A DNA stretch of 53,871 nt, taken from the IMG/VR virus record IMGVR_UViG_2718218453_000001, positions 1 to 53,871 of that record; one strand, given 5' to 3'. Of the stretch, positions 1,468-53,174 are shown one piece after another (within the stretch, counting starts at the first letter, position 1; each line of letters opens with the position of its first letter). The notes beneath the pieces were generated by a model. The model worked only from the letters and a program-made list of their open reading frames with translations, made no database searches and was not told the origin of the DNA. The position numbers were made by a program, and so were the translations under genes. The DNA is from a virus (Duplodnaviria; Heunggongvirae; Uroviricota; Caudoviricetes).

Positions 1468-1560
1468 ACCATTTTGCTGCCACTACCAAAGAAAAAGGGG
1501 CTACGCTTTCACGTAACCCCTTGATTTATTTGTTGAGCTGGCGGTGTCTGAATTGGTGCT
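1468..1560. repeat. att-like remnant: copy of phage-supplied ssrA terminator flank plus degenerate ssrA 3' core
   Basis: 1468-1531 matches 52750-52811 with a single mismatch seen, including the AAGGGG...CCCCTT hairpin; followed by a degenerate tmRNA 3' end (ttgagctggcggtgtctgaatt versus tggagctggcgggagttgaacc). Confidence 0.7.
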
Positions 1561-1649
1561 GTAATTGGTTGAAATATTTATTCTAATGTCTGGTTCAACT
1601 TTCCTTAGCTGCCTGAAAGTTTTTTTGATCTTACCCATCAATAATAGGG

Positions 1650-1760
1650 TTACGGTACACCACGCCTGACTGATGAACTGCGTGCTCAGGGTTACCTCTT
1701 CAACGTAAAACCGTGGCAGGAGGTCCGGACTGAAAAAACTGCTCAGGACATTATCGGCGG
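1650..1760 (+). pseudogene. Possible IS3-family transposase fragment
   Basis: Short open frame translating YGTPRLTDELRAQGYLFNVK, reminiscent of IS3-family transposase N-terminal region; no intact gene. Confidence 0.3.
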
Positions 1761-1948
1761 TGGACGCACGGGTAGTCTGTAAACCGAACCGACTGGGGCG
1801 CAGTATGTGGCATCTTGTCGTGCTGTTGGAGGAGCTGTGCAAACGTGGTATTAACTTTCGTGCTCTGGCCCAATCTATATTTGCCCAACAATGGGGGGAC
1901 GAATGCTGTAAAAGTAAAAGAATCTGCGATCTCAAAGTTATTGTGTGA
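1760..1948 (+). pseudogene. Serine recombinase (DNA invertase, Pin/Hin-like) fragment
   Basis: Translation KPNRLGRSMWHLVVLLEELCKRGINFRALAQSI matches the conserved LDRLGRS...ELRERGINFRSL block of Hin/Gin/Pin invertases, then diverges; no N-terminal catalytic region. Confidence 0.6.
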
Positions 1949-2277
1949 TTTTTATGTGAGCAGAAGATATTCATCAGAAACGATTATGTAAATCATTTTA
2001 TTTTGCCGACGACCTGATTGTCGAAAGAAAAGAATACCCCCGTATTCCCTGAATAGATTGACTTTTTTATCCAACCATACTTCAGCGCACTGCGTTTAAA
2101 AAATGCTTCTTTCTTATGTGGAATATCATCATTTCATCATGATGTCTTTGATGAGCGGTGAACACAATACACTTGCGCTGTCTCTTCAGGATGAATCCCC
2201 TGGTCTGGTGCCTGTGGGCTGATGTTGCAGCAGAGCTAAGGTCGCTTAAACGCTACTCAGTATTCACTTTTCAGAGG

Positions 2278-5187
2278 ATGAAATTTATGAACAGGACCAG
2301 TCCCCATTATTGTCGCCGCTCAGTACTTTCCTTATTGATATCTGCCTTGATATATGCCCCGCCCGGTATGGCGGCCTTCACTCCTGATGTTATTGGTGTG
2401 GTAAACGATGAGACTGTAGATGGCAACCAAAAAGTGGATGAACGAGGTACAACAAATAACACTCATATTATCAACCATGGCCAGCAGAATGTTCATGGCG
2501 GGGTATCTAATGGAAGTCTTATTGAATCTGGTGGATATCAAGATATAGGAAGTCATAACAATTTTGTGGGGCAGGCTAATAATACAACCATTAACGGTGG
2601 CAGACAGTCAATTCATGACGGGGGTATTTCCACAGGTACGACAATCGAGAGTGGCAATCAGGACGTTTATAAAGGGGGTATCAGCAATGGAACGACAATT
2701 AAGGGCGGTGCTTCACGCGTAGAGGGAGGGAGTGCGAATGGAATACTCATTGATGGTGGTAGCCAGATAGTAAAAGTTCAAGGGCATGCTGATGGTACAA
2801 CGATAAATAAGTCTGGCTCTCAGGACGTAGTACAAGGAAGTCTGGCAACGAACACAACCATAAATGGTGGTCGACAGTATGTTGAACAGAGCACAGTAGA
2901 AACAACAACCATTAAAAATGGCGGTGAGCAAAGAGTATATGAGAGCCGTGCGCTGGACACGACGATTGAAGGCGGAACTCAGTCTCTGAATAGTAAGTCA
3001 ACGGCAAAAATTACGCAGATCTATTCTGGTGGCACGCAAATTGTTGATAACACCAGCACCTCGGATGTTATTGAAGTTTATTCCGGTGGCGTGCTTGATG
3101 TTAGTGGTGGTACGGCAACAAATGTTACCCAGCACGATGGTGCAATTTTAAAAACAAACACTAACGGTACGACGGTGAGCGGTACGAATAGTGAAGGTGC
3201 ATTCTCCATCCACAATAAAGTGGAAGACAATGTGTTGCTGGAAAATGGAGGCCATTTAGAAGTATCTCATTCCGCAAACAAGACGATTATTAAAGATAAA
3301 GGAACAATGTCAGTTTTAACGAATGCTAAAGCTGATGCGACCCGAATAGATAATGGCGGGGTTATGGATGTTGCAGGAAACGCGACAAATACCATAATTA
3401 ATGGTGGCACACAGAATCTTAATAATTATGGCATAGCCACAGGCACCAATATCAACAGCGGAACGCAAAATATCAAAAGCGGTGGGAAAGCTGACACAAC
3501 AATTATATCCTCCGGGAGCCAGCAAGTTGTTGAGAAAGATGGTACGGCAATTGGCAGCAATATTAGCGCCGGAGGCTCGCTGATTGTCTATACCGGCGGT
3601 ATTGCACATGGGGTTAACCAGGAGACGGGCAGTGCTTTAGTTGCCAACACGGGCGCAGGGACTGATATTGAAGGATACAACAAGCTCTCTCACTTCACTA
3701 TTACCGGAGGGGAGGCTAATTATGTTGTGCTGGAAAATACCGGCGAACTGACGGTAGTGGCTAAAACCTCGGCGAAAAATACTACCGTTGATGCTGGCGG
3801 TAAGCTGATTGTCCAGAAGGAGGCTAAAACAGATACCACCAGACTTAATAATGGTGGCGTTCTGGAGGTTCAGGACGGTGGTGAGGCTAAGCATGTTGAG
3901 CAACAATCCGGCGGCGCATTAATTGCTTCCACAACTTCCGGAACCCTTATCGAAGGAACCAACAGTTATGGTGATGCTTTCTACATCAGGAATTCAGAAG
4001 CTAAAAATGTAGTGCTGGAAAACGCTGGCTCATTAACAGTCGTCACTGGTTCCCGGGCAGTTGATACGATTATTAATGCCAACGGCAAAATGGATGTTTA
4101 TGGAAAAGATGTTGGCACTGTACTTAATAGTGCTGGCACCCAAACAATATATGCCAGTGCCACTTCTGATAAAGCAAATATCAAAGGTGGCAAGCAAACG
4201 GTATATGGTTTAGCCACTGAGGCAAATATTGAAAGTGGTGAACAAATTGTTGATGGTGGGTCAACTGACAAAACGCACATCAATGGCGGCACACAAACCG
4301 TTCAGAATTATGGTAAGGCGATCAATACCGATATCGTCTCTGGCCTACAACAAATTATGGCAAACGGGATAGCGGAAGGTTCCATTATTAATGGGTGTTC
4401 ACAGGTAGTTAATGAGGGCGGTCTGGCTGAAAACTCGGTGCTTAATGACGGCGGCACACTCGATGTGCGGGAGAAAGGCAGCGCAACGGGGATACAGCAG
4501 AGTAGCCAGGGCGCTTTGGTTGCAACCACCAGGGCGACGCGGGTCACAGGAACACGCGCGGATGGCGTCGCGTTCAGCATCGAGCAGGGTGCGGCGAACA
4601 ATATCCTGCTGGCAAATGGCGGCGTGTTAACCGTGGAGTCAGACACCTCTTCTGACAAAACACAGGTCAATACGGGCGGACGGGAGATCGTCAAAACAAA
4701 AGCCACTGCGACAGGCACGACGCTCACCGGCGGCGAACAAATCGTCGAGGGGGTGGCGAATGAGACAACGATTAACGACGGCGGAATACAAACAGTTTCA
4801 GCTAACGGAGAGGCAATAAAAACAAAGATCAATGAAGGCGGTACGCTGACAGTTAACGATAATGGCAAAGCGACAGATATCGTCCAGAACAGCGGTGCCG
4901 CTCTCCAGACGAGCACGGCTAACGGTATTGAAATCAGCGGTACTCACCAGTACGGCACTTTTTCCATTTCCGGCAATTTAGCGACCAATATGTTGCTGGA
5001 AAATGGCGGTAATTTATTGGTATTAGCAGGTACCGAAGCTCGCGACTCCACGGTTGGCAGCGGTGGAGCCGCCAACGGCAGTTATCGCAGCTACGGGCTG
5101 GGCGGTCACATTGAAACCGGGATGCGATTTACCGATGGTAACTGGAACCTGACGCCGTATGCATCGTTAACGGGGGTTCACCGCTGA
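2278..5187 (+). CDS. AIDA-I/Ag43-type autotransporter adhesin, passenger domain (apparently disrupted gene)
   Basis: Signal-peptide-like N-terminus (MKFMNRTSPHYCRRSVLSLLISALIYAPPGMAAF); long run of about 19-residue Gly/Thr-rich repeats typical of beta-helical passengers; frame ends at TGA 5185-5187 inside beta-domain-like sequence. Confidence 0.7.
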   Translation: MKFMNRTSPHYCRRSVLSLLISALIYAPPGMAAFTPDVIGVVNDETVDGNQKVDERGTTNNTHIINHGQQNVHGGVSNGSLIESGGYQDIGSHNNFVGQANNTTINGGRQSIHDGGISTGTTIESGNQDVYKGGISNGTTIKGGASRVEGGSANGILIDGGSQIVKVQGHADGTTINKSGSQDVVQGSLATNTTINGGRQYVEQSTVETTTIKNGGEQRVYESRALDTTIEGGTQSLNSKSTAKITQIYSGGTQIVDNTSTSDVIEVYSGGVLDVSGGTATNVTQHDGAILKTNTNGTTVSGTNSEGAFSIHNKVEDNVLLENGGHLEVSHSANKTIIKDKGTMSVLTNAKADATRIDNGGVMDVAGNATNTIINGGTQNLNNYGIATGTNINSGTQNIKSGGKADTTIISSGSQQVVEKDGTAIGSNISAGGSLIVYTGGIAHGVNQETGSALVANTGAGTDIEGYNKLSHFTITGGEANYVVLENTGELTVVAKTSAKNTTVDAGGKLIVQKEAKTDTTRLNNGGVLEVQDGGEAKHVEQQSGGALIASTTSGTLIEGTNSYGDAFYIRNSEAKNVVLENAGSLTVVTGSRAVDTIINANGKMDVYGKDVGTVLNSAGTQTIYASATSDKANIKGGKQTVYGLATEANIESGEQIVDGGSTDKTHINGGTQTVQNYGKAINTDIVSGLQQIMANGIAEGSIINGCSQVVNEGGLAENSVLNDGGTLDVREKGSATGIQQSSQGALVATTRATRVTGTRADGVAFSIEQGAANNILLANGGVLTVESDTSSDKTQVNTGGREIVKTKATATGTTLTGGEQIVEGVANETTINDGGIQTVSANGEAIKTKINEGGTLTVNDNGKATDIVQNSGAALQTSTANGIEISGTHQYGTFSISGNLATNMLLENGGNLLVLAGTEARDSTVGSGGAANGSYRSYGLGGHIETGMRFTDGNWNLTPYASLTGVHR

Positions 5188-5215
5188 TAACCCTGAATAT
5201 CATTTATCCAATGGC

Positions 5216-5542
5216 ATGGAATCGAAATCAGTCGATACCCGCAGTTTATATCGTGAACTGGGTGCAACGCTGAGTTACAACATGCGTCTGGGGAACGGTA
5301 TGGAAGTTGAGCCGTGGCTGAAGGCGGCTGTGCGCAAAGAATTTGTCGATGATAACCGGGTGAAAGTGAATAGTGACGGTAATTTCGTCAATGATTTGTC
5401 GGGCAGACGTGGAATATACCAGGCAGGTATTAAAGCCTCATTCAGCAGTACGTTAAGCGGGCATCTTGGGGTGGGGTATAGCCATGGTGCCGGTGTGGAA
5501 TCCCCGTGGAACGGGGTAGCTGGTGTGAACTGGTCGTTCTGA
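5216..5542 (+). pseudogene. Autotransporter beta-barrel C-terminal fragment in a different frame
   Basis: 108-aa ORF ending ...GVNWSF (aromatic C-terminus typical of autotransporter barrels); frame-shifted relative to the passenger ORF and too short for a full translocator domain. Confidence 0.6.
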
Positions 5543-5552
5543 CCATCAACGA

Positions 5553-5577
5553 AAAAGCCCACATCTGTGGGCTTTCA
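5553..5577. terminator. Hairpin downstream of autotransporter
   Basis: Inverted repeat aaagcccaca / tgtgggcttt with 3-nt loop; the T-run is on the minus-strand side. Confidence 0.4.
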
Positions 5578-5696
5578 TGTCACCAGGAGCCGCGGCTCCT
5601 TTGCGTATCCTTTTATGTCTCTTCACCGTCTGGTCGGTGTCCTGCTGAGACTGCTAACTTCCTGTTTTTATTGGTGTTGTCCTTATACCGTCCAAT

Positions 5697-5725
5697 CATG
5701 ATTGGCTGGCGGAGTCTGAATTTGT
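5697..5725. repeat. Degenerate ssrA 3' core copy (distal att of the satellite)
   Basis: ttggctggcggagtctgaatttg resembles the tmRNA 3' end and the degenerate copy at 1532-1560. Confidence 0.35.
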
Positions 5726-5774
5726 ATGTTATATCTATGTTTTAATTGGTTATTTATTTAAGTTGTTTTTGTTT

Positions 5775-5793
5775 GTATACCTAAGCGTATACC
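5775..5793. promoter_or_regulatory. Two GTATACC direct repeats (candidate integrase arm-type sites)
   Basis: GTATACC at 5775 and 5787; the same heptamer recurs four times next to the P4-type int gene at 17968-18014. Confidence 0.4.
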
Positions 5794-5880
5794 AATAGCG
5801 GGGTGCAATACTTATTGAACTTTAAAAAAATCACGCTAAATAGGTCTTCTATATTCAAAAAAACTCTTTTTTCAATAAAT

Positions 5881-5958
5881 TGTTCACACTGTTCACTTTG
5901 GATTTTTACCATTCAAAATCAAGGAAATAGAAGTTAACTGTACGGTGAAGAGTGAACA
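5881..5958. promoter_or_regulatory. Iteron cluster (candidate satellite ori for alpha protein)
   Basis: TGTTCAC at 5881 and 5890 and the inverse GTGAACA at 5952 (variant GGTGAAG at 5944), just downstream of the alpha 3' end; P4 ori/crr are known to contain TGTTCACC-type iterons. Confidence 0.4.
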
Positions 5959-5983
5959 GATAACTCTACATTCTTGTGCCAGC

Positions 5984-6012
5984 AAAAATAAAACCCGGCA
6001 TCAGCCGGGTTA
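5984..6012 (-). terminator. Rho-independent terminator of alpha operon
   Basis: Stem aacccggc / gccgggtt with 5-nt loop, followed on the minus strand by a T-run (plus-strand aaaaataaa). Confidence 0.6.
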
Positions 6013-6019
6013 GTTGTAA

Positions 6020-8353
6020 TTATTTGATTGTTGGCTCATCGCACTTGGGTAGCCAGTCTGCATTACTTTCCTCTTTTAAAGTGAGGTTAGTCTGCATTCC
6101 CTGATTAGTTCGCCGTTTCTCATAATGTAGCCCGTACTCCTTCAGCATGACTGGCAACCCTTTGCCAAACATCGTAAGACTCAGGGTGTTTTTATATCCA
6201 TTAGCCTCCATGTATACGAGGTAGGCATGGTAAAGGTAGGTACGTGGCTGGCGTGGGACAATATTGGCGTTCCCCATAAACATGCCGTTGGTGTCAGGTA
6301 ATGCCTCAAGATAGCCACAAAAATCAAATGCTGGATCAGCATCACGCTTGATGGTGAGAGCCTCATCAGAATTCTGCTGCGACTGAAGCAATGTTCTGGC
6401 GCTCATCGGATCGCTGAAACGCTGCATGAGCTGGCGAACAATCACAGCCAGTTCTCGTGCAATTTTATCTTTCAGCTGCGGATCGCGTTCTTCCGGTGCT
6501 ATCTGCTCAGGAAAATGCAGAATAACTCTCCTGCGGGACACACCACCACTGCGATCAGTGAAGCGCATAGGATTATTATTTACGGCCAGGATAACCGCCG
6601 GAATATGTGTTGAATAAGCATTCTGATATTTGGGGTCCACCGATACCGCATCGCCACCAGTTATAGCCTTAAGCCCGGCGCCGTCGCCGCTCCACTTCTC
6701 CTGATCAGGCAGGCGAATAAGAGAAAAACCTATCAGAGCCGCACGTTCTCGCGGGGACTCCAGCGTTTCAATGGTCGCAGAGGTGGCGTTATCCTCTCCA
6801 GCAAGCATGGTCGCAATTTCAGCCAGAATACTTTTGCCACTTCCACCAGGGCCAGTCACTTCCAGAAAGAGCTGCCAGTCATAGCGATTCGCCAGCACCA
6901 TAAATAACGCCGCAAGAATAATGTCGCGTTTTTCTGGCTTGTGTCCGGCAGCCCGGTCCAGCCAGCGCCAGAATGCCGGGGCATGAGTTTCAAGCGTTTC
7001 CCCCTCTACCGGTGGCGTGAAATCGACTTCACACAGGGTACGCAGCCAGTTCTCTTTACAGTGCGGACTAAACAGCCCTGTTCGCGTATCGAGGACGCCA
7101 TTACGAAAACCGATCAGATGACGTGCCGGATTTTGCTGCTGCGGAACAATTAACTTTAATGTTTCCACCAGTGAAGCAATTTTTCCTGAGGAAAACGGTG
7201 CACCGAGGCGCTGGAAAAGGGCTGCGACATCTCGGGCAAAATCTGACTGAGAAATCACTTTCCACGCTCCAGACTCGTAGCGGGATAAAAGCTGCCCGTT
7301 CGGATCAACCGCCAGTGCATCCCTGTAATGCTCCCGAACCCTCTGAGCTTTTTCGCTGACACTCATCGCTGTGAATTCTGCTTCACTCATTGTGTCGAAA
7401 GGACTGGCGTTATGTGGCTTCAAAGCCTCAAGAATTGCCTTCCGGGTGGATTCCTCTCCGTATTGGGTAAGCGCATCATTCCAGTCACCAAAAACCGGTG
7501 GCTGCACAATGTCACACTGACACGCTTTTGCAGCAGTTTCAGCCCTGTTCTGGCCTGAACCATTCAGATCGCGGTCCGCTGCAATAATTAACTGATATCC
7601 CGGATACTTGTTATGGGCAACGCTGGCCAGAGAAAGAAAGTTGACCGACGAAAATGCCACCATGACGGCTTCTCCTGTCAGATGACGAATGGTAAGCGCC
7701 GTGGCGTAACCTTCCGCAATCCACATCCTTCTTACAGAACTCCCGCCCCCTTCTATCAGATGATAGGCCTCCTTAACCTGACCTCCTTTAAGAAAACACT
7801 TGCTACCATTGCCACTGATAAGCTGAATATTCACCAGTTCCCCGTCAGCGTTATAGAGCGGGACGATCAAATCACCGGGGTGGAACATCACCCCACCGGT
7901 TTTATGACCTGAAGTCAGCTCATGGCAAATATGCTCCGGGAAACCTTTATGTGTAAGATAAGTATTTCCGGCAGATTCACGCGAGGCTTGCAGTAGTCGC
8001 GCGGCAAGTGCTGCTGCCGCCTGTTTCCCGCCATCTGTATCTGCGGTTGACGTCCAGACTCCAGAAGAGGCTGAAGACAGACTATGTGTCAGTCCATGTA
8101 TCCTGTCTGCTGCTTCACTGATATCCACATTCAGTACCTTGCTGACAAGCGCTAAACCGTCCCCAGCCCCGCACTGGTTGCAGAACCATGTTCCACGTCC
8201 TTCCAGATCGTCGAAGCGAAAACGATCTTTACCGGCGCAGACCGGACAAGGCTGATGGCGATTTTTCAGTATGTTCATACCCAGCGCTGGCAAAATCCGC
8301 GCCCAGTGACCGCGGGCAGCCTTCACGGCCTGACTGACTTTCATTCCTGACAT
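6020..8353 (-). CDS. alpha: P4 alpha-like primase-helicase
   Basis: Zinc-binding primase motif CPVCAGKDRFRF...CNQCGAGDG, Walker A GPGGSGKS; 777 aa from the ATG at 8353 (GGGAG RBS upstream), same size as P4 alpha. Confidence 0.9.
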   Translation of the reverse strand: MSGMKVSQAVKAARGHWARILPALGMNILKNRHQPCPVCAGKDRFRFDDLEGRGTWFCNQCGAGDGLALVSKVLNVDISEAADRIHGLTHSLSSASSGVWTSTADTDGGKQAAAALAARLLQASRESAGNTYLTHKGFPEHICHELTSGHKTGGVMFHPGDLIVPLYNADGELVNIQLISGNGSKCFLKGGQVKEAYHLIEGGGSSVRRMWIAEGYATALTIRHLTGEAVMVAFSSVNFLSLASVAHNKYPGYQLIIAADRDLNGSGQNRAETAAKACQCDIVQPPVFGDWNDALTQYGEESTRKAILEALKPHNASPFDTMSEAEFTAMSVSEKAQRVREHYRDALAVDPNGQLLSRYESGAWKVISQSDFARDVAALFQRLGAPFSSGKIASLVETLKLIVPQQQNPARHLIGFRNGVLDTRTGLFSPHCKENWLRTLCEVDFTPPVEGETLETHAPAFWRWLDRAAGHKPEKRDIILAALFMVLANRYDWQLFLEVTGPGGSGKSILAEIATMLAGEDNATSATIETLESPRERAALIGFSLIRLPDQEKWSGDGAGLKAITGGDAVSVDPKYQNAYSTHIPAVILAVNNNPMRFTDRSGGVSRRRVILHFPEQIAPEERDPQLKDKIARELAVIVRQLMQRFSDPMSARTLLQSQQNSDEALTIKRDADPAFDFCGYLEALPDTNGMFMGNANIVPRQPRTYLYHAYLVYMEANGYKNTLSLTMFGKGLPVMLKEYGLHYEKRRTNQGMQTNLTLKEESNADWLPKCDEPTIK

Positions 8354-8367
8354 GATGCAGTTCTCCC

Positions 8368-8691
8368 TCAGTGTAAAACCGGCTTTATAATGTGACGGAC
8401 GCATAACTCATCCATTACGGCTATTCCGAGCTGGGAGAGTGCGGGGCAGGACATTAGAGGACCGGATTCCATCAGGTCTGAAAGCAGGGCGCAGGCGATT
8501 TCCATGCCTTTTGTTTGCCCGTGCTGTCGCAGATAAAAACCTTCAAGCTCACGGGCAATGGCGGTTTCAATTTCATCCAGAGTGAGCTGCAGGTGGCGGT
8601 TGTGCTGATGGCAGATACTCAGCCAGGCGCAGGCAACCGCGCGGCGATATAACGCCAGCCGAAGTGAGAGGGGAAGAGTGCGTGATTTCAT
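8368..8691 (-). CDS. Hypothetical protein (satellite regulatory region, Cnr-position)
   Basis: 107-aa ORF immediately upstream of alpha, co-directional; assignment by position only. Confidence 0.45.
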
Positions 8692-8915
8692 TGCACCACC
8701 TCCTTGTTCATCAGGTCATCCTGGCAACGCTGTACCACGCCATCAAGCTGTTCTGTCATCAGATAAATCAGGGAAACCAGTTGCTCACATTGAGCACCTG
8801 CAGGTTTTTCATAGCAGTCCTGAAGAACAGCCATTCCGGTGACAAATTCCCCCACGTTACGAAGATGCTTGAGGCGGACAATATCGTCATAAGAAATTGC
8901 GGCGTGATTCATCAC
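8688..8915 (-). CDS. Hypothetical small protein
   Basis: 75-aa ORF with 4-nt overlap to the next gene, same operon. Confidence 0.4.
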
Positions 8916-9463: not shown

Positions 9464-9723
9464 TATGCATCACATCCCCGTCCGCGGGCACTTATACGAT
9501 CCGCCATCCATGCGCTTACCTCTGACTGTGCCCAGGCAACATTTTTACCACCAAGCGGGATCTGCTTCGGGAAAGCATCGCGGCTTATCAGGTCGTATAT
9601 AGTTGAGCGGGACAAGCCGCATAAATGCATCACCTCGGGAAGACGTAAAAATCGCTCATGCTGGTTCAGCACAGGAAATAATGGCGCAGCCGGAGCTGGC
9701 GCAGAAACAGAAATATCATGCAT
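9463..9723 (-). CDS. alpA: AlpA-family transcriptional regulator / excisionase-like
   Basis: Motif [22 protein letters not shown]...[23 protein letters not shown] typical of AlpA/Vis-family HTH proteins. Confidence 0.85.
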
Positions 9724-11940: not shown

Positions 11941-11941
11941 T

Positions 11942-44948: not shown

Positions 44949-44960
44949 ATACCGTCATTT

Positions 44961-44978: not shown

Positions 44979-45054
44979 ACTGCGCTTAGCTGCTTGTCAG
45001 ACACAATCACTTCAACATAGGGCGAAGCCTAATCCAATCAGGAGGTTCGCCACT

Positions 45055-46227: not shown

Positions 46228-46236
46228 GGGGACAAC

Positions 46237-46752
46237 ATGGCTTTACCACGCAAATTAAAACACCTCAACCTGTTTAACGACGGGAACAACTGGCAGGGGA
46301 TCGTTGAGTCGCTGACGCTGCCGAAATTCACCCGCAAATATGAGAAGTATCGCGGTGGCGGAATGCCGGGTGCAGTGGATGTGGATTTGGGGCTGGATGA
46401 TAGTGCGCTGGACACAGAATTTTCCATTGGTGGTACTGAACTGCTGCTGTTTAAGCAGATGGGCAAAGTCACGGTGGATGGTATCCAGTTGCGCTTTACC
46501 GGCTCTATTCAGCGTGACGATACCGGGGAAGTGCAGGCCGTGGAGCTTGTGGTGCGTGGACGTCACAAAGAAGTGGATTCCGGCGAGTGGAAGACGGGCG
46601 AAAGCAACACCACCAAAGTGACCAGTACCAACAGCTACGCGAAGCTGACTATCAATGGTGAGGTGCTCTATGAAGTGGACCTTATCAACATGGTGGAAAT
46701 TGTGGACGGCGTGGACCTGATGGAAGCGCACCGCAACGCCCTCGGCCTCTGA
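46237..46752 (+). CDS. FII: Tail tube protein FII
   Basis: 171 aa. Confidence 0.9.
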   Translation: MALPRKLKHLNLFNDGNNWQGIVESLTLPKFTRKYEKYRGGGMPGAVDVDLGLDDSALDTEFSIGGTELLLFKQMGKVTVDGIQLRFTGSIQRDDTGEVQAVELVVRGRHKEVDSGEWKTGESNTTKVTSTNSYAKLTINGEVLYEVDLINMVEIVDGVDLMEAHRNALGL

Positions 46753-46806
46753 TGTATCTGAACGGCGCGGGATTCCGCGCCAGAACCCAATTGACAGGAC
46801 AGAAAA

Positions 46807-47109
46807 ATGAGCGATAAGCAGACTGAAAAGACTATTCAACTGGATACCCCTATCAAGCGCGGTAAAACGGAAATCACCGAAATTGTGCTGCGTAAACCGC
46901 AGTCCGGTGCGCTGCGCGGTACACGCCTGCAGGCCATTATGGATATGGATGTGAACGCGATGATGACCGTGATCCCCCGCATCTCCAGTCCGGCACTGAC
47001 TGCACAGGAAATTGCAGAGATGGACCCGGCAGATCTCACTGCCATGTCGGTTGAGGTTGTTACTTTTTTGTTGAAGAAGTCGGTGCTTGCCGGTTTACCG
47101 ACAGCCTGA
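46807..47109 (+). CDS. E: Tail assembly chaperone gpE
   Basis: 100 aa upstream of the tape measure gene. Confidence 0.85.
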   Translation: MSDKQTEKTIQLDTPIKRGKTEITEIVLRKPQSGALRGTRLQAIMDMDVNAMMTVIPRISSPALTAQEIAEMDPADLTAMSVEVVTFLLKKSVLAGLPTA

Positions 47110-47243
47110 CGGTTGACGATCTGGTGGCTGATATCGCCACCATCTTTCACTGGCCGCCATCCGTTACTGACGTTATGCCGCTGACCGAAGTGCTGGAATG
47201 GCGGTATAAAGCGATTCAGAGAAGCGGGGCCAACGATGAGTGA
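46807..47243 (+). CDS. gpE+E' produced by -1 programmed frameshift
   Basis: Slippery heptamer T TTT TTG at 47064-47070; the -1 frame stays open to TGA 47241-47243 (extension ...LTEVLEWRYKAIQRSGANDE). Confidence 0.65.
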
Positions 47244-50200
47244 TAATAACCTGCGCCTGCAGGTCATTCTTAATGCGGTTGACAAACTCACCCGCCCATT
47301 CCGTGCTGCACAGGCCAGTTCGAAAGAGTTGGTTGGCGCAATTCAGAATACCCGAAACAGCCTCAAAGAACTGAATAAGCAGGCTGGCAGAATTGATGAA
47401 TTTCGCAAGACGCGCTCGCAACTAGCCATAACAGCCAACAACCTGAACGCAGCCCGCGAAGAGGCGGCAAAACTCGCCACACAATTTGCTGCCACTAACA
47501 GGCCAACCGCCGCGCAGGCAAAGTTATTCAGTCAGGCCAAAACACGAGTACAGGAACTTCAGCAGACCTATAACGGCTTGTTGGGTGCGGTCCAGAGACA
47601 ACGTCAGGCACTTAAAGAATCAGGGATTGATACCAGACAACTCAGTAGTGCCCAGCGAGAACTTAAGAAAAATGCTGAAGAAACAAGGCAGGCACTGGAG
47701 GGCCAGCAAAAAGCACTTAAACGTCTGGGTGAACAACAGGCACGGATGAACGCTGCCAGAGAACAATACTCAAGACGGCTTGAAGTGCGCGATCGCATCG
47801 CAGGAGCCGGAGCCACTACCACGGCTGCAGGGCTGGCAATGGGTGCGACAGTGATGGCGGCAGTAAAAAGCTATACCAGCATGGAAGATGCCATGAAAGG
47901 TGTGGCAAAGCAGGTCAATGGTCTGCGTGACGATAATGGCAACCGCACTGCACGTTTTTATGAAATGCAGGATGCCATCAAGGCTGCCAGCGAACAGTTG
48001 CCGATGGAAAACGGTGCGGTGGACTTCGCTGCACTGGTTGAAGGAGGTGCGCGCATGAACGTCGCAAACCCTGACGACAGCTGGGAAGACCAGAAACGTG
48101 ACCTGCTGGCCTTCGCCAGTACGGCAGCAAAGGCGGCAACAGCCTTTGAGCTGCCAGCGGATGAACTGTCAGAAAGTCTGGGGAAAATCGCCCAGCTCTA
48201 CAAAATACCTACCCGCAATATTGAACAGCTCGGCGATGCGCTGAACTATCTGGATGATAACGCCATGTCGAAAGGGGCGGACATCATTGATGTGATGCAA
48301 CGTCTGGGCGGTGTGGCTGACCGTCTGGATTATCGTAAAGCGGCGGCATTGGGTTCCACCTTTCTGACACTGGGCGCTGCGCCGGAGGTTGCAGCCAGTG
48401 CAGCAAACGCGATGGTGCGTGAATTGTCCATTGCCACCATGCAAAGCAAGAGTTTCTTTGAAGGGATGAATCTGCTGAAACTCAATCCTGAAGTGATTGA
48501 AAAGCAGATGACGAAGGATGCGATGGGAACTATCCAGCGTGTGCTGGAGAAGGTGAACGCACTGCCGCAGGACAAGCGTCTGTCTGCCATGACCATGTTG
48601 TTTGGTAAAGAGTTTGGTGATGATGCGGCGAAACTGGCAAACAACCTTCCGGAACTGCAGCGCCAGCTAAAACTGACAGCGGGCAATGATGCGCTCGGTT
48701 CCATGCAGAAAGAATCCGACATCAACAAAGACTCACTTTCCGCTCAGTGGTTGCTGGTCAAAACCGGAACGCAGAACACCTTCAGCAGCCTGGGCGAAAC
48801 GCTGCGCCAGCCGCTGATGGATATTCTGTACACGGTGAAAAGCATTACGGGGGCGTTGCGCCGCTGGGTGGAAGCTAACCCGGAACTGACAGGCACACTG
48901 ATGAAAGTAGCGGCTGTTGTGGCTGCGGTTACCGTAGGCCTCGGCACCTTAGCGGTGGCGCTGGCTGCAGTGCTGGGGCCGCTGGCAGTGATCCGTCTGG
49001 GATTCTCTGTGCTGGGTATCAAAACGTTACCTTCCGTTACGGCAGCAGTAACTCGAACCAGCAGCGCGTGGTCCTGGCTGGCTGAAGCACCACTGGCACT
49101 GCTGCGACGCGGGCTTGCTTCATCAGGCAACGCCGCAGGTTTACTTACTGCGCCGTTGTCGTCTTTGCGCCGCACGGCATCACTGACGGGAAATGTCCTG
49201 AAAACTGTAGCTGGTGCGCCGGTTGCACTGTTGCGGTCTGGATTATCCGGTTTACGTGCGGTTGCTGTGATGTTTATGAATCCACTGGCAGCACTACGCG
49301 GCGGGCTGGCTGCCGCAGGCACGGTGCTGCGAGTACTGGCATCTGGTCCACTGGCGATGTTGCGCGTTGCCCTGTATGCCGTATCTGGTCTGTTAGGTGC
49401 TCTGCTTAGTCCGATAGGTCTTGTGGTTACTGCACTGGCGGGTGTGGCACTGGTTGTCTGGAAATACTGGCAACCCATCACCGCATTTCTCGGTGGCGTG
49501 GTGGAAGGATTCAAAGCGGCGGCAGGTCCCATCAGTGCAGCGTTCGAACCGCTTAAGCCTGTGTTCCAGTGGATTGGCGACAAAGTGCAGGCGCTATGGG
49601 GCTGGTTTACTGATCTGCTGACTCCCGTTAAGTCGACCTCTGCCGAACTGCAGAGCGCAGCGGCAATGGGGCGACGATTCGGGGAGGCACTGGCGGAAGG
49701 GCTGAATATGGTTATGCATCCGCTGGACTCCCTGAAATCCGGCGTTTCCTGGTTGCTGGATAAACTCGGCATTGTCAGTAAAGAGGCTGCAAAGGCGAAA
49801 CTGCCGGAAAGCGTGACGCGTCAGCAACCTGCGACGGTGAATGCAGACGGTAAAGTGATGATGCCATCGGGTGGTTTTCCGTCATGGGGATATGGCTTTG
49901 CGGGGATGTATGACAGCGGCGGCTATATCCCGCGCGGGCAGTTTGGCATCGTCGGTGAAAACGGGCCGGAAATTGTTAACGGCCCGGCAAATGTGACCAG
50001 CCGGAGAAATACAGCTGCACTGGCTGCCGTTGTTGCCGGAATGATGGGCGTTGCTGCCGCGCCTGCAGAGCTTCCACCGTTGCATCCTTTGGCACTTCCC
50101 GCGAAAGGCGGCGAAGCGATGGTGAGTCGTGCAGCCACTGTGCCGCCCGTTCAACGGATTGAGGCACCGATGCAGATCATCATTCAGACGCAGCCAGGAC

Positions 50201-50313
50201 AAAGTGCGCAGGATATTGCGCGGGAGGTGGCCCGCCAGCTTGATGAGCGTGAACGCAGGCTGAAGGCAAAAGCCAGGAGTAACTACAGCGATCAGGGGGG
50301 ATACGAAGCATGA
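47236..50313 (+). CDS. T: Tail tape measure protein gpT
   Basis: 1025 aa, Ala-rich helical, hydrophobic central region. Confidence 0.9.
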   Translation: MSDNNLRLQVILNAVDKLTRPFRAAQASSKELVGAIQNTRNSLKELNKQAGRIDEFRKTRSQLAITANNLNAAREEAAKLATQFAATNRPTAAQAKLFSQAKTRVQELQQTYNGLLGAVQRQRQALKESGIDTRQLSSAQRELKKNAEETRQALEGQQKALKRLGEQQARMNAAREQYSRRLEVRDRIAGAGATTTAAGLAMGATVMAAVKSYTSMEDAMKGVAKQVNGLRDDNGNRTARFYEMQDAIKAASEQLPMENGAVDFAALVEGGARMNVANPDDSWEDQKRDLLAFASTAAKAATAFELPADELSESLGKIAQLYKIPTRNIEQLGDALNYLDDNAMSKGADIIDVMQRLGGVADRLDYRKAAALGSTFLTLGAAPEVAASAANAMVRELSIATMQSKSFFEGMNLLKLNPEVIEKQMTKDAMGTIQRVLEKVNALPQDKRLSAMTMLFGKEFGDDAAKLANNLPELQRQLKLTAGNDALGSMQKESDINKDSLSAQWLLVKTGTQNTFSSLGETLRQPLMDILYTVKSITGALRRWVEANPELTGTLMKVAAVVAAVTVGLGTLAVALAAVLGPLAVIRLGFSVLGIKTLPSVTAAVTRTSSAWSWLAEAPLALLRRGLASSGNAAGLLTAPLSSLRRTASLTGNVLKTVAGAPVALLRSGLSGLRAVAVMFMNPLAALRGGLAAAGTVLRVLASGPLAMLRVALYAVSGLLGALLSPIGLVVTALAGVALVVWKYWQPITAFLGGVVEGFKAAAGPISAAFEPLKPVFQWIGDKVQALWGWFTDLLTPVKSTSAELQSAAAMGRRFGEALAEGLNMVMHPLDSLKSGVSWLLDKLGIVSKEAAKAKLPESVTRQQPATVNADGKVMMPSGGFPSWGYGFAGMYDSGGYIPRGQFGIVGENGPEIVNGPANVTSRRNTAALAAVVAGMMGVAAAPAELPPLHPLALPAKGGEAMVSRAATVPPVQRIEAPMQIIIQTQPGQSAQDIAREVARQLDERERRLKAKARSNYSDQGGYEA

Positions 50314-50795
50314 TGATGGTGCTGGGATTGTACGTGTTTATGCTGCGCACTGTGCCGTATCAGGAACTGCAGTATCAACGCAGCTGGCGACATGCGGCAA
50401 ACAGCCGGGTCAACCGACGTCCGTCCACGCAGTTTCTGGGACCAGACAACGACATGCTGACGCTTTCTGGTGTTCTTATGCCGGAGATAACGGGCGGCAG
50501 GCTGTCGTTGCTGGCTCTGGAGCAGATGGCAGAACAGGGAAAAGCATGGCCCCTGATTGAAGGCAGCGGCACGATTTACGGCATGTATGTGATTGAGGGA
50601 CTGAATCAGACTAAAACGGAGTTTTTCCGCGATGGTATGCCGCGCCGGATTGAGTTCACCCTGTCGCTCAAACGGGTGGATGAATCCCTGTCCGATATGT
50701 TCGGTGATCTCAGTGCGCAGCTGAATAATTTGCAGGATACGACAACGTCTGCCTTAAGCGATATCAGTAAAACGGTGGGAGGGCTGCTGTCGTGA
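50310..50795 (+). CDS. U: Tail protein gpU
   Basis: 161 aa. Confidence 0.85.
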   Translation: MMMVLGLYVFMLRTVPYQELQYQRSWRHAANSRVNRRPSTQFLGPDNDMLTLSGVLMPEITGGRLSLLALEQMAEQGKAWPLIEGSGTIYGMYVIEGLNQTKTEFFRDGMPRRIEFTLSLKRVDESLSDMFGDLSAQLNNLQDTTTSALSDISKTVGGLLS

Positions 50796-51892
50796 ATTTC
50801 AGCTCTGAACTGCTTAACAAAGGAAACAAAACTCCCGCATTCAGCATCAGTATTGAGGGGAAGGATATCACCACTGTGCTGGATAACCGCCTGATGAGTC
50901 TGACGCTGACGGACAATCGGGGCTTTGAAGCAGACCAGCTTGATCTGGAGCTGGACGACGCCGACGGAAAAATCGTGCTGCCGCGCCGTGGTGCGGTCAT
51001 TACGCTGGCGCTGGGGTGGAAGGGGCAGCCGCTTTTCCCGAAAGGGGCATTCACGGTGGACGAGATTGAACACACTGGCGCACCGGACCGCCTGACTATC
51101 CGGGCGCGAAGTGCTGATTTTCGGGAAACGCTGAATACCCGCCGCGAAAAATCGTGGCACAAGACCACTGTCGGGGAAGTGGTGAAGGAAATAGCCGTAC
51201 GTCACAAGCTGAAGATGGCACTGGGTAAAGACCTGTCGGATAAGCCCGTGGAGCATATAGACCAGACTAATGAGAGTGACGGTAGTTTTTTGATGCGGCT
51301 GGCGCGCCAGTACGGTGCTATTGCGTCGGTGAAAAATGGCAATCTGTTATTCATCCGGCAGGGACAGGGCAAAAGCGCCAGCGGTAAACCACTGCCGGTG
51401 ATCACTATCACGCGTAAGGACGGCGACAGTCACCGCTTTACCCTGGCAGATCGCGGAGCCTATACGGGCGTAATTGCCAGCTGGTTGCATACCCGCGAAC
51501 CCGCGAAGAAAGAAAGCACCACGGTGAAGCGTAAGCGCAGGACTAAGAAGCAGAAGAAAGAGCCGGAAGCGAAGCAGGGCGATTACCTGGTGGGTACGGA
51601 TGAAAACGTGCTGGTACTTAATCGCACTTATGCCAACCGGAGCAACGCCGAACGAGCGGCGAAAATGCAGTGGGAACGTCTGCAACGCGGTGTTGCGGCA
51701 TTCTCGCTACAACTGGCGGAAGGGCGGGCAGATCTCTACACGGAAATGCCAGTGAAAGTCAGTGGCTTTAAACAGCCGATAGATGATGCGGAATGGACCA
51801 TTACCACCCTGACACATACCGTCAGCCCGGATAACGGTTTTACAACCAGTATTGAACTCGAAGTGAGGATAAGTGATCTTGAAATGGAATAA
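50792..51892 (+). CDS. D: Tail protein gpD
   Basis: 366 aa. Confidence 0.9.
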   Translation: MNFSSELLNKGNKTPAFSISIEGKDITTVLDNRLMSLTLTDNRGFEADQLDLELDDADGKIVLPRRGAVITLALGWKGQPLFPKGAFTVDEIEHTGAPDRLTIRARSADFRETLNTRREKSWHKTTVGEVVKEIAVRHKLKMALGKDLSDKPVEHIDQTNESDGSFLMRLARQYGAIASVKNGNLLFIRQGQGKSASGKPLPVITITRKDGDSHRFTLADRGAYTGVIASWLHTREPAKKESTTVKRKRRTKKQKKEPEAKQGDYLVGTDENVLVLNRTYANRSNAERAAKMQWERLQRGVAAFSLQLAEGRADLYTEMPVKVSGFKQPIDDAEWTITTLTHTVSPDNGFTTSIELEVRISDLEME

Positions 51893-51963
51893 TGTGCTCT
51901 CAATATTGATATTTTGTGTATCATTGCAATGATTCTGATAGCAAAGGTAGGGATCTGGATATG

Positions 51964-52179
51964 ATGAATTGTCCAAAGTGTGGTCATGCGGCACACACAA
52001 GGAGCAGTTTTCAAGTAACTGAAAGCACCAAAGAGCGTTACTGCCAGTGCCAAAATATTAACTGCGGGAGCACTTTTGTTACCCATGAAACAGTGGTCCG
52101 GTTTATTGTGACACCCGCACTGATTGCTACTGCTCCTCCACATCCATTGCCAGGTGGTCAGGGGCATATGAATTTCTGA
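51964..52179 (+). CDS. ogr: Ogr-family zinc-finger late gene activator
   Basis: MNCPKCGHAAHTRSS...YCQCQNINCGSTF matches the Ogr zinc finger. Confidence 0.85.
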   Translation: MNCPKCGHAAHTRSSFQVTESTKERYCQCQNINCGSTFVTHETVVRFIVTPALIATAPPHPLPGGQGHMNF

Positions 52180-52205: not shown

Positions 52206-52688
52206 TTATTCATCTGGGATCTCACCCGTTTCAAGAAAATGTATAAAGCCAGGCTCATCTATGATGATCGTGCCTTTCATCCTGGCTGCCGATACTTTCG
52301 ATGGGCCTGCATTGTAACCGCAACAGAGCATCTGAAGGCTTTGGGTTACAGAGGCTCTTACCGTTAATCCTTGTTCATTCGCCTTATCAACCAATCTTTC
52401 TTTATCTGCTTTCTTAAATCCGGTGAAACACACATCGAATGTATTTTTTTTCGGACCAGACTGCTTAGTGAGATGTGAGTAGTTTTCGGGGAGGAATGAC
52501 GCGCATTCCTGAATGGCTTGTTCTGGTGAATCGTACTGTTTAAGAATGCGGTCTTTTCGGAAGGTTTTTATTCGATCGGTGTTCTTACAAATGCCCTGTA
52601 TATGATTTTCGCTATAACTGATGCTCTGTATTGAGTGAACACCGATACGACCATTTGCATTGATGTAAACAAAGTGAAGTTCTTCCAT
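52206..52688 (-). CDS. WYL-like plus BRCT-like domain protein (cargo between ogr and att)
   Basis: 160 aa; N-terminal HIQGICKNTDRIKTFRKDRI resembles WYL motif; C-terminal FDVCFTGFKKADKERL...GLTVRASVTQSLQMLCCG...IIIDEPGFIHFL resembles BRCT; AAGAGG RBS. Confidence 0.6.
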   Translation of the reverse strand: MEELHFVYINANGRIGVHSIQSISYSENHIQGICKNTDRIKTFRKDRILKQYDSPEQAIQECASFLPENYSHLTKQSGPKKNTFDVCFTGFKKADKERLVDKANEQGLTVRASVTQSLQMLCCGYNAGPSKVSAARMKGTIIIDEPGFIHFLETGEIPDE

Positions 52689-52714
52689 GTGAAACCTCTT
52701 TGCATGATTTCAAG

Positions 52715-52753
52715 ATGGCGACAGGCAAGATGGACGCAATAGTCTGTCGCCAT
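52715..52753. promoter_or_regulatory. Palindromic operator-like element upstream of WYL/BRCT gene
   Basis: Perfect 10-bp inverted repeat ATGGCGACAG / CTGTCGCCAT with 19-bp spacer, 27-65 nt upstream of the start codon. Confidence 0.4.
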
Positions 52754-52764
52754 TTTGCCGCCAC

Positions 52765-52803
52765 TACCAAAGAAAAAGGGGCTACGCTTTCACGTAACCC
52801 CTT
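52765..52803 (-). terminator. Rho-independent terminator of ssrA (phage-supplied)
   Basis: Minus-strand hairpin AAGGGG...CCCCTT followed by TTTTTCTTT; the same element is copied at 1483-1521. Confidence 0.7.
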
Positions 52804-52811
52804 GATTTATT

Positions 52812-53174
52812 TGGTGGAGCTGGCGGGAGTTGAACCCGCGTCCGAAATTCCTACATCCTCGGTACTACATGCTTAGTCAGTCTTTACATTCGCTTGCCAG
52901 CTGCGGACGGACACGCCACTAACAAACTAGCCTGATTAAGTTTTAACGCTTCAACCCCAGGCAGGGCTTCCACGCGATCTCTTTTGGGTTTGACCTCTCT
53001 TGATCCCCGTCCTAAGAGCGGAGGCTAGGGAGAGAGGGCTCTAAGCAGGTTATTAAGCTGCTAAAGCGTAGTTTTCGTCGTTTGCGACTATTTTTTGCGG
53101 CTTTTTACGAGGCCAACCGCCCCTCGGCATGCACCTTGGGTTTCGCAAATCCCGTCGAATCCAGAATCAGCCCC
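52812..53174 (-). ncRNA. ssrA: tmRNA (SsrA)
   Basis: Reverse complement gives GGGGCTGATTCTGGATTCGACGGG at the 5' end and ...GGACGCGGGTTCAACTCCCGCCAGCTCCACCA at the 3' end, matching the enterobacterial tmRNA sequence as recalled; 363 nt. Confidence 0.95.

Follow-up and report, generated by a model that had tools for sequence, protein, structure and literature searches.

Repeats of the ssrA 3' end

This locus raises the question of how several mobile elements came to lie in tandem at one tmRNA gene (ssrA), and in what order they arrived. We analysed a stretch of 53,871 nucleotides as a whole (the window), which is the E. coli interval between ypjCB and smpB. Comparison of its sequence with phage records and other genomes argues that the window is very probably explained by four generations of site-specific integration at the 3' end of ssrA. 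Tandem islands at a tmRNA gene are a well-documented form of integration hot spot, and the array belongs to this known kind; it is not a new system. The flanks, the gene and its long displaced fragment are:

1-1374, plus strand: ypjCB, left chromosomal flank (RefSeq annotation of identical strain 4012; Pfam)
18124-18173: displaced ssrA 3' fragment (45 nt from ssrA and 5 nt more), identical over 50 bp to 52807-52856
52812-53174, minus strand: functional ssrA (ARAGORN; Rfam, 295.8 bits)
53389-53871, minus strand: smpB, right chromosomal flank (annotation)

The ypjCB flank has a low GC content and carries DUF5507 and DUF5508 domains (Pfam). Every base of the final 45 nt of ssrA (52812-52856) is repeated at 18129-18173, as the first-pass annotation had reported, and the identity extends to 50 bp. 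The same annotation placed a copy of the flank 52750-52811 at the left end. The copy is real, about 62-63 nt with one mismatch (61 of 62 positions identical over 1469-1530), but it begins at 1469 and not at 1468. Where flank runs into core, the repeat family spans 67 nt and is 97% identical, and a chance origin of such long repeats in 54 kb is excluded. Two further copies had been proposed near 5697-5725 and 1532-1560. By sequence alone they are not significant (local alignment of 5660-5760 with the ssrA 3' region scored 11), and they are closer to each other (GCTGGCGGnGTCTGAATTnGT) than to ssrA, but genome comparison validates both. Each consists of a short displaced piece of ssrA and the far arm of an island with a P4-type integrase.

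The 186-type prophage

The element next to ssrA is complete, of the P2/186 type and, including one core, 34.7 kb long. Its features are:

18174-52811: 186-type P2-family prophage (annotation of identical strain, phage identity, Pfam)
18259-20457, minus strand: cargo ORFs (annotation of identical strain)
18269-18286, plus strand: P-arm Int arm-type repeats, GCCGCCA twice, 11 bp apart
20462-21481, minus strand: int (annotation of identical strain)
21484-22128, minus strand: CI (annotation; Pfam)
22236-22478: apl/cox
22511-23020: cII
25460-27874: A
about 28633-28690: cos
28785-30708: cargo
30794-33585, minus strand: Q and P
33728-39538: O through S
39651-40451: TIR-domain protein
40528-51892: V through D
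51916-52179: ogr
52206-52688, minus strand: BRCT-like ORF
52746-52811, minus strand: P' arm, Int arm-type repeats and intrinsic terminator for ssrA

At the DNA level the prophage is about 94% identical to records of phages that include Escherichia phage Cartapus (Int 93% and gpN 99% identical), and its CI is of the 186 type (Pfam); together with the annotation and the arm repeats, this bears out the earlier reading of this element as 186-like. The arm consensus of 186-type Int is tgccGCCActt (PMC3448106), and repeats of this type lie on both sides of the prophage core, those of the P' arm being GTCGCCA at 52746 and GCCGCCA at 52757. The terminator combines a 12-bp stem (52776-52803) with a GAAA loop and a U run. 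In the free phage Cartapus the attP is uninterrupted, running through right arm, hairpin, core and left arm within the order ogr-ORF-attP-cargo-int-cI, and the same attP was found in two IMG/VR contigs. The flank 52750-52811 sits within this uninterrupted attP and, by this sequence match, is phage-supplied, as had been suggested. The last 45 nt of ssrA and the terminator are supplied by the prophage.

The P4-like satellite

The second element, 12.4 kb with one core included (5703-18128), has the following features:

5703-5712: far att core, TGGCTGGCGG (breakpoint against the empty-site sequence)
5713-18128: satellite body (Pfam; Rfam; BLAST)
6020-8404, minus strand: alpha primase-helicase (Pfam; 74% identical to P4 alpha)
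8368-8691, minus strand: DUF5375 protein
8912-9463, minus strand: Ash/CI-region ORF
9158-9245, minus strand: C4/CI RNA (Rfam)
9314-9391, minus strand: isrK (Rfam)
9463-9723, minus strand: AlpA/Vis (Vis 64% identical to P4)
10604-11389, plus strand: Sid-like protein
11386-11940, plus strand: Psu
11942-12214, plus strand: Delta
12388-12446: cos region, GGTGCATGAAAACCA ... GGCAGGCGGGCGGGGCAGCGCACGC (collinear BLAST matches to prophage cos)
12640-16164, plus strand: Hachiman defence cassette in the satellite hotspot (PADLOC)
12640-13038 and 13035-13580, plus strand: hamA, split by a frameshift
13582-16164, plus strand: hamB
16745-17944, minus strand: integrase (61% identical to K-12 IntA)

Pfam, Rfam and BLAST agree with the P4-like nature claimed for it, and its replication and immunity half has about 71% DNA identity to P4. 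The window leaves the empty-site sequence of 1,385 E. coli genomes exactly at 5703-5712, a stretch whose K-12 counterpart is the annotated ssrA fragment psaA. This far core reproduces the final 15 nt of ssrA imperfectly, as CGCCAGC-----CA, a form that is listed for P4-integrase ssrA islands (PMC10107115, Table 1). The copy at 5697-5725 is therefore the satellite's own far att, and its reading as a degenerate relic was rejected. At the other end, the fragment at 18124-18173 has a double role, being the left att core of the prophage and containing the Int-proximal core of the satellite (18129-18143). The frameshift in hamA is a run of six A against seven at 12933-12938; in strain 789 hamA is intact.

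The left end of the array

The remaining features lie between ypjCB and the satellite:

1469-1531: scar of an older 186-type phage P' arm, one difference from 52750-52811
1531-1571: oldest junction, mutated ssrA 3' piece and island far arm
1572-5702, plus strand: integrase-less island remnant (annotation; directly abuts ssrA in 1,385 genomes)
1712-1879: pinH', recombinase pseudogene
2158-5187: ypjA autotransporter, truncated
5216-5542: ypjA beta-barrel fragment

The scar keeps the terminator hairpin (1496-1519) and one decayed Int arm repeat (GCTGCCA, 1476-1482) that fits the 186-type consensus (PMC3448106), and it was also found, more decayed, in K-12 and other E. coli. An older P2-family remnant had been proposed for the left end; only this 63-bp arm-plus-terminator scar is P2-family, the neighbouring 4 kb being the pinH'/ypjA block, a conserved E. 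coli segment that starts with a P4-integrase-type island arm. At the oldest junction, TGTTGAGCTGGCGG (1531-1544, unchanged in position in K-12 and other strains) is joined to the P4-integrase-type far arm TGTCTGAATTGGTGCTGTAATTGGTTG, in a form resembling the K-12 psaA junction and junctions in Citrobacter and Kosakonia. The Citrobacter, Kosakonia and IMG/VR loci share one geometry, phage arm with hairpin, short ssrA piece, island arm, and one Citrobacter locus has intact U-D-ogr genes on the left. By this geometry the body of the older phage would once have lain left of 1469, and the history proposed for the integrase-less pinH'/ypjA block is the one its junction sequences alone suggest.

Occupancy of the site in E. 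coli

We compared the window with 5,426 complete E. coli genomes. The empty site, with ypjA directly joined to ssrA, was present in 1,385, many of them 100% identical to the predicted junction. The satellite occurred in 17 genomes, 11 of which lack the prophage junction; in strain 789 the same satellite directly abuts ssrA without a prophage. Conversely, in XJW9B263 a related prophage lies directly between ypjA and ssrA, with no satellite and with the 45-nt left core intact. The right end of the prophage was found at ssrA in 164 genomes, while its left end with the cargo was confined to six, all satellite-bearing. The satellite-prophage junction of the window was likewise found in 6 of the 5,426, and these six vary elsewhere (an IS1 insertion, tail-fibre repeat number). 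Genomes with an empty site, satellite alone, prophage alone and both confirm the independent boundaries and successive integrations proposed earlier. At the level of sequence, these comparisons establish the structure, the boundaries, the independent natural occupancy and the phage attP.

Proposed order of integration

We infer the following order, in which each new integration would displace earlier elements away from ssrA. A 186-type P2-family phage would have integrated first, a later deletion sparing only its P' arm and terminator (1469-1531). An island with a P4-type integrase would then have entered, of which only pinH'/ypjA persist as a remnant now fixed in E. coli. The 12.4-kb satellite would have followed, its IntA-type integrase recombining within the last ~15 nt of ssrA and leaving the imperfect far-end copy at 5703-5712. 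Finally, the 34.7-kb Cartapus-like prophage would have entered through a 186-type integrase and a 45-50-bp core, rebuilding the ssrA 3' end, bringing in arm sites and an intrinsic terminator of its own, and shifting the former 45 nt of ssrA to 18129-18173. Since the satellite and the prophage each retain an integrase of their own and two att sites, each is expected to excise separately and may still be mobile.

That the satellite preceded the prophage, as first proposed, is plausible and agrees with the 11 satellite-only genomes, but the displaced 45-nt fragment could itself have served as a secondary attB for a satellite arriving after a prophage had entered the empty site. The resulting structure would be indistinguishable from the observed one, and in XJW9B263 the fragment with its left context (…caatcatgat followed by TGGTGGAGCTGGCGG…CCTACAT) equals the empty-site target across the P4-type integrase region (identity over 45 nt). 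We nevertheless consider this reverse order unlikely: the satellite backbone of the 11 genomes without the prophage is identical, the left-end cargo of the prophage is restricted to satellite-bearing genomes, and integrases normally prefer the full-length target.

The oldest step depends on the scar being of phage origin. The flank at 1469-1531 occurs in all E. coli examined and lies outermost in the array beside a displaced ssrA piece, where native downstream sequence is expected, so it could instead be the ancestral E. coli ssrA terminator, which stayed behind at the first insertion and was captured by a phage. This is distinctly improbable, because the homology takes in the 186-type Int arm repeat region (CCATTTTGCYGCCACTACC) besides the hairpin (PMC3448106), and the same hairpin is found in free-phage attP with 186-type and P2-type arm repeats and adjoins other tRNA genes in distant bacteria. 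The Citrobacter locus (L019) with intact phage genes left of the same junction also speaks against it, and ypjCB, flank and ssrA were contiguous in none of the 5,426 genomes. The idea of one composite island, or of an artefact of assembly from collapsed or duplicated repeats, has nothing in its favour except the repeats and is scarcely credible; it was refuted by other complete genomes that have each sub-element on its own at this site and by the junction in six complete genomes that differ elsewhere.

The prophage as a possible helper

The satellite and prophage cos regions are collinear (BLAST) and share an identical 15-nt block, although the cohesive-end core of the satellite differs from that of the prophage by indels and substitutions. 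The prophage cos core equals that of Cartapus; P4 was also included in the alignment. Because the satellite is equipped with the P4 hijacking set (Sid-like, Psu, Delta, alpha and CI RNA) and with a cos homologous to the one in the resident prophage, it may use this prophage, a plausible helper in trans. Compatibility is uncertain, since BLAST found no P4 epsilon homologue in the satellite. Nothing assigns a role to the adjacency itself, since interaction between P4 and P2 in trans is known.

Relation to known systems

Islander records 125 tandems that combine at least two islands, and no target is more enriched than the tmRNA gene. The window does not differ in kind: the intact target gene lies at one end with the newest element beside it, and every island has its own integrase and displaced 3' fragment. 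The pairing of a Cartapus-like prophage with this Hachiman satellite is rare (6/5,426 complete E. coli).

Like CP4-57 of K-12, the satellite has an IntA-type integrase and an AlpA-family regulator, and its site, the very 3' end of ssrA, is the one used by CP4-57, Stm27X and other P4-integrase islands. The far-end fragment is imperfect in each, CGCCAGC-CCACCA in K-12 psaA and the shorter form of the window in Stm27X. The P4 genes for replication and hijacking are missing from CP4-57, whereas in the window alpha, Sid-like, Psu, Delta, CI RNA and cos make up a full P4-like satellite. A tmRNA-inactivating deletion has been described for CP4-57 excision (PMC10107115); the satellite abuts the displaced fragment and not the working gene, and its excision should therefore not cause such a deletion.

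P4 and the satellite are collinear across the block of alpha, DUF5375, CI region and Vis. As in the P4-like family (Moura de Sousa & Rocha 2021, PMC8628076; Rousset et al. 2022, PMC9122126), Psu, Sid-like, Delta and cos are present and a defence hotspot, here holding Hachiman, adjoins cos. Unlike P4, which lies at leuX, the satellite uses ssrA through an integrase 36% identical to P4 Int, has the order sid-psu-delta and a single-domain Delta of 90 aa, and its cos flank fits the Cartapus type, not P2/P4.

The prophage shares P2 gene order and ssrA integration with Cartapus (Elveevirus) and with Fels-2 and SopEPhi of Salmonella, and has in common with ssrA-integrating P2-family phages the 186-type CI/Apl/CII switch, the Int arm repeats and a long perfect core restoring the ssrA 3' end; its attP layout is that of Cartapus. 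It differs from these phages in cargo at three loci (att-int, beside cos, and S-V) and has no invertible tail-fibre segment. In the identical strain, PGAP flags the Fil gene and the tail-fibre assembly gene as partial; the tail-fibre assembly ORF in the window reads through, with 136 aa.

The ssrA gene and its displaced fragments

An intact ssrA bounds the array on one side: the tmRNA gene at 52812-53174 (minus strand) is full-length (ARAGORN; Rfam 295.8 bits), and smpB follows beyond it. As the first-pass annotation had noted, the final 45 nt of ssrA (52812-52856) are repeated without mismatch at 18129-18173; the perfect identity even spans 50 bp. The copying of the phage flank of ssrA at the left end was likewise borne out, with 52750-52811 matched at 1469-1530 with one mismatch. 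Read in the ssrA sense, this flank folds into a hairpin (12-bp stem, GAAA loop) with a U run behind it, an intrinsic terminator located 8 nt past the CCA end of ssrA.

Two further copies of the ssrA 3' end, near 5697-5725 and 1532-1560, had been described as degenerate. Their sequence by itself is insufficient evidence: the region 5660-5760 gave a local alignment score of 11 against the ssrA 3' region, and the two weak copies are more like each other (GCTGGCGGnGTCTGAATTnGT) than either is like ssrA. Comparison with other genomes showed that both are real junctions. The core of the satellite, the P4-like element, comprises only the last ~15 nt of ssrA, and its far-end copy is imperfect, with TGGCTGGCGG corresponding to CGCCAGC-----CA in the ssrA sense. 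Exactly this form is given for ssrA islands, Stm27X with its P4-type integrase among them, while phages with a P2 integrase have a perfect ssrA copy instead (PMC10107115, Table 1). The weak copy at 5697-5725 is therefore an att site belonging to the satellite, not the degraded remains of an earlier element.

Occupancy of the ssrA site in E. coli

Site occupancy was compared across 5,426 complete genomes of E. coli. The window itself is E. coli DNA, and its left 18.2 kb was 100% identical to several complete genomes. The predicted empty site, in which the sequence downstream of ypjA is fused directly to an intact ssrA, was present in 1,385 of the 5,426, often with 100% identity to the predicted junction. 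The satellite of the window (at least 80% of 1-18200 covered) was present in 17 genomes, and in 11 of these it abutted ssrA or lacked the prophage junction (strain 789 was inspected directly). The junction between satellite and prophage occurred in six genomes, and the right end of the prophage abutted ssrA in 164. In strain XJW9B263, the one genome examined for this state, a related prophage lies directly between ypjA and ssrA, with the 45-nt left core intact and without the satellite. This strain led us to recognise the true empty site, ypjA joined to ssrA; a synthetic ypjCB-flank-ssrA site, found in 0 of the 5,426 genomes, had at first pointed to the absence of any empty site. The results showed that empty, satellite-only, prophage-only and double states all occur, as expected from the proposed successive, independent integrations at the tmRNA site. 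Among the array strains, an IS1 insertion is a point of difference, as is a tail-fibre repeat expansion of 504 bp; this variation excludes both faulty assembly and a single composite island.

Islands stacked in tandem at a tRNA or tmRNA gene, each with its own fragment and integrase, have been defined and counted as a class, with the tmRNA gene as the most enriched target (PMC4383910). Each feature of the Islander definition was found here, namely an intact target gene, displaced fragments, integrases and independent occupancy. The ssrA 3' fragments lie in the same orientation, an exact one of 45-50 bp for the prophage (18124-18173) and an imperfect one of 10/15 nt for the satellite (5703-5712), the latter validated against the empty-site sequence. 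The two integrases are at 16745-17944 (Arm-DNA-bind_3, Phage_int_M and Phage_integrase) and 20462-21481 (Int_N and Phage_integrase). Neither the 63-bp scar nor the pinH'/ypjA remnant carries an integrase, so only two members of the array count as islands by that definition.

The P4-like satellite

The element at 5.7-18.1 kb was identified as a P4-like satellite by its core genes and RNAs (Pfam, Rfam and BLAST); the alpha gene, late operon, CI RNA and Vis are all present.

Features of the satellite
Alpha primase-helicase: Zn_Ribbon_Prim, Toprim, D5_N and Pox_D5 domains; 74% identity to P4 alpha
DUF5375 protein: core gene
Ash/CI-region ORF: Ash family; aligns with the P4 cI/ash region, not with epsilon
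AlpA/Vis: AlpA Pfam match; 64% identity to P4 Vis
Psu paralogue in the Sid position, upstream of Psu: Psu-fold match, 1.8e-7; 23% identity to P4 Sid
Psu: Psu family match, 2e-35
Delta, single-domain: Ogr_Delta match, 1.7e-16
16745-17944, integrase: 61% identity to K-12 IntA, only 36% to P4 Int
9158-9245, minus strand, C4/CI RNA: full-length Rfam match, 84.6 bits
9314-9391, minus strand, isrK: full-length Rfam match, 76.7 bits

The immunity region holds Rfam matches to both the C4 antisense RNA and isrK, an Hfq-binding sRNA that was first reported from a Salmonella island. No satellite ORF gave a BLAST match to P4 epsilon. A Hachiman cassette (PADLOC) adjoins the satellite cos region, a position known as a P4 defence hotspot (PMC9122126). 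Its hamA gene (12640-13580) is split into two ORFs, with A6 at 12933-12938, whereas the intact hamA of strain 789 has A7; strain 4012, an array strain, shows an additional T6/T7 difference near this homopolymer. The split reflects either real inactivation or a homopolymer sequencing error.

The 186-type prophage

The region at 18.2-52.8 kb is a complete P2-family prophage with a 186-type CI/Apl/CII switch, in which CI was recognised by Phage_CI_repr and Phage_CI_C (Pfam) and Apl/Cox and CII by annotation. The P2 structural genes are present in the P2 order, Q P O N M L … V W J I H … FI FII E T U D ogr, according to the annotation of an identical strain. The prophage shares ~94% DNA identity with phage records. 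Of the named phages, Escherichia phage Cartapus (Elveevirus) is closest to it (~94% DNA identity, with 93% for Int and 99% for gpN). Its att core, perfect over a long 45-50 bp, is bordered on both sides by 186-type Int arm repeats that match the consensus tgccGCCActt (PMC3448106).

Int arm repeats and cargo of the prophage
18269 and 18280, GCCGCCA: arm repeats on the left
52746, GTCGCCA, and 52757, GCCGCCA: arm repeats on the right
18259-20457, between att and int: two ORFs with no family match
28785-30708, beside cos: three genes, with a weak HATPase_c match, a STAS-like DUF4325 domain and an ORF without known family
39651-40451, between S and V: TIR-domain protein
52206-52688, next to attP: BRCT-like 160-aa ORF

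Gene order, switch and arm repeats together support the 186-like prophage that had been proposed next to ssrA. When right arm, flank, core and left arm were joined into a synthetic attP, the sequence aligned in one piece to Cartapus 23008-23576 with 94.4% identity, where the layout is ogr-ORF-attP-cargo-int-cI, and an exact attP 60-mer was present in two IMG/VR contigs.

The four cargo positions likely hold defence or exclusion cargo of unassigned type. At 18259-20457 and 28785-30708, there was no PADLOC match and, except for the STAS-like domain, nothing over the Pfam curated cut-offs; relatives carry GapS1 or a RES-domain protein at the att-int position. The prophage of the window has no disrupting IS, while strain 4012 has IS1 in the TIR gene. 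The Gly-rich tail-fibre gene H (42952-44535) contains 168-bp tandem units at 43518-43727, and strain 4012 has three more units, adding 504 bp in frame. A suspected tail-fibre frameshift proved to be this difference in repeat number, and the tail-fibre assembly ORF reads through. Cartapus and XJW9B263 have an invertible tail-fibre segment and an invertase, whereas the window has neither.

Order of integration and the helper question

The first-pass annotation placed the satellite first and the prophage second. Parsimony favours this order, since the satellite occurs without the prophage in 11 genomes and the left-end cargo of the prophage was found only alongside the satellite. Later entry of the satellite, into the displaced ssrA fragment, is less likely but would also fit the structure alone. 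The proposed order therefore agrees with parsimony but is not fixed by the structure.

The cos regions were located by collinear short BLAST matches and alignment with P4 and Cartapus. The cos regions of satellite and prophage are collinear and share an identical 15-nt block, GGTGCATGAAAACCA, unlike the P4 equivalent. The satellite cos region is also homologous to and collinear with those of P4 and Cartapus, and the cos core of the prophage is the annotated Cartapus cos. The cohesive-end cores of the two elements differ (GGCG-GGCGGGGCAGCGCAC versus GGCGTGGCGGGGATACGAG), and the P2/P4 cohesive-end 19-mer was absent from the window even with up to 3 mismatches allowed. The homology of the cos regions makes it plausible that the prophage could serve as helper for the satellite, although the differing cores and the lack of an epsilon match make this uncertain. 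Nothing indicates a role for their physical adjacency.

With the prophage present, the working ssrA 3' end and terminator come from the phage, and the satellite adjoins a dead fragment. Excision of CP4-57-type islands gives a 3' deletion that inactivates tmRNA (PMC10107115); in contrast, excision of this satellite, next to a dead fragment, should no longer do so. Such excision would leave the predicted chromosomal scar …catgat-TGG(…)CTGGCGGGAGTTGAACC…CCTACAT, followed by ACTATC.

The left end and a probable older phage scar

The first 5.7 kb contains ypjCB, a pinH' recombinase pseudogene and a truncated ypjA autotransporter gene, according to annotation in an identical strain and K-12. In ypjA (2158-5542), a 1009-aa ORF and a 108-aa beta-barrel fragment stand against 1526 aa in K-12, and many genomes whose ssrA site is empty share this truncated or split allele. 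By this annotation, the genes of 1-5.7 kb are conserved E. coli genes and not P2-family DNA, so the older P2-family remnant proposed for the left end does not extend to them; what stands of it is a probable phage scar at 1469-1531.

We initially favoured a native ssrA terminator at 1469-1531, a reading that is now weakened. The homology extends past the hairpin into the phage arm-repeat region (CCATTTTGCTGCCACTACC versus phage GCCGCCA), the hairpin also occurs in the attP of free phage, and ypjCB, flank and ssrA are contiguous in none of the 5,426 E. coli genomes. On the arm-repeat match and the distribution of the hairpin, we dropped it. In a hairpin scan using one genome per species, Citrobacter and Kosakonia showed the same geometry as the left end of the window, with phage arm and hairpin, a short ssrA piece and a P4-integrase-type island arm in succession; at the Citrobacter junction, the phage U-D-ogr genes are still present on the left. 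Given this geometry and the arm-repeat homology, we interpret 1469-1531 as a scar left by an older 186-type phage, with the phage body formerly to the left of 1469. From 1545 onward, the pinH'/ypjA region reads as a putative remnant of a later P4-integrase-type island. Versions of 1469-1531 in other E. coli are decayed further.

Relation to known ssrA elements

P4-like satellites are frequently found together with P2-like phages (PMC13586616), and SopEPhi and Fels-2 integrate in ssrA (PMC3448106). Each ingredient has been described before: islands in tandem at ssrA, defence hotspots in P4-like satellites, and P2-family phages that integrate at ssrA. The window is a new, rare pairing of known kinds and does not change current understanding. 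The locus offers a clean, fully bounded case of mobile-element build-up at the tmRNA gene. With every intermediate occupancy state in public genomes, it is a convenient natural system for asking whether a Cartapus-type (186-like) prophage mobilises an ssrA-resident P4-like satellite and how stacked elements affect each other's excision.

The terminator hairpin at other loci

The 24-nt hairpin GGGGCTACGYTTTCAYGTAACCCC, found in the window at 52777-52800 and 1496-1519, has conserved AAAAA and TTGwTTT flanks. We collected hairpin loci from genomes (L010-L053) and IMG/VR (L054-L170). In many enterics, the exact hairpin directly follows tmRNA on its 3' side, accompanied by 186-type (GCCGCCA) or P2-type (GTGGAC) arm repeats. 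Outside enterics, distant Proteobacteria carry it beside tRNA genes (tRNA-Asn, tRNA-Thr, tRNA-Met and tRNA-Leu), 8-20 nt past the gene; these are Comamonadaceae, Chitinimonas, Janthinobacterium, Spongiibacter, Allopusillimonas and a Desulfovibrio MAG. A perfect IHF consensus (WATCAANNNNTTR) overlaps the hairpin in 19 of 44 loci. From the pattern length, 596 Gb of sequence should contain ~0.3 exact matches by chance. Because only exact matches were sought, the apparent invariance is partly a selection effect; the conservation of the flanks and the constant position beside a tRNA gene are not artefacts of that kind. An Rfam E-value search of the flank returned no family for the hairpin.

The non-enteric loci contained no P2-like genes next to the hairpin and, within 8 kb, no second tRNA fragment; the tRNA-Asn version gave 0 matches among the viral contigs scanned. 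That the hairpin is a portable att-site module, and not a feature of one phage lineage, is a tentative and rather doubtful proposal. If true, integrative elements of differing target specificity would have a single terminator/IHF unit in common and pass it on, each time giving a new terminator to the tRNA or tmRNA gene that is rebuilt, and this unit would outlast decay of the element as the resident terminator of the gene, as at 1496-1519.

At IMG/VR loci L063, L136, L116, L100, L087 and L095, junctions beside the same phage arm cut the ssrA 3' end at differing depths. The break points fall after GCTGGCGG, GAACCCGCG, GTCCGAAAT and CCTACAT, showing that at least four integrase site classes are stacked at enteric ssrA genes.
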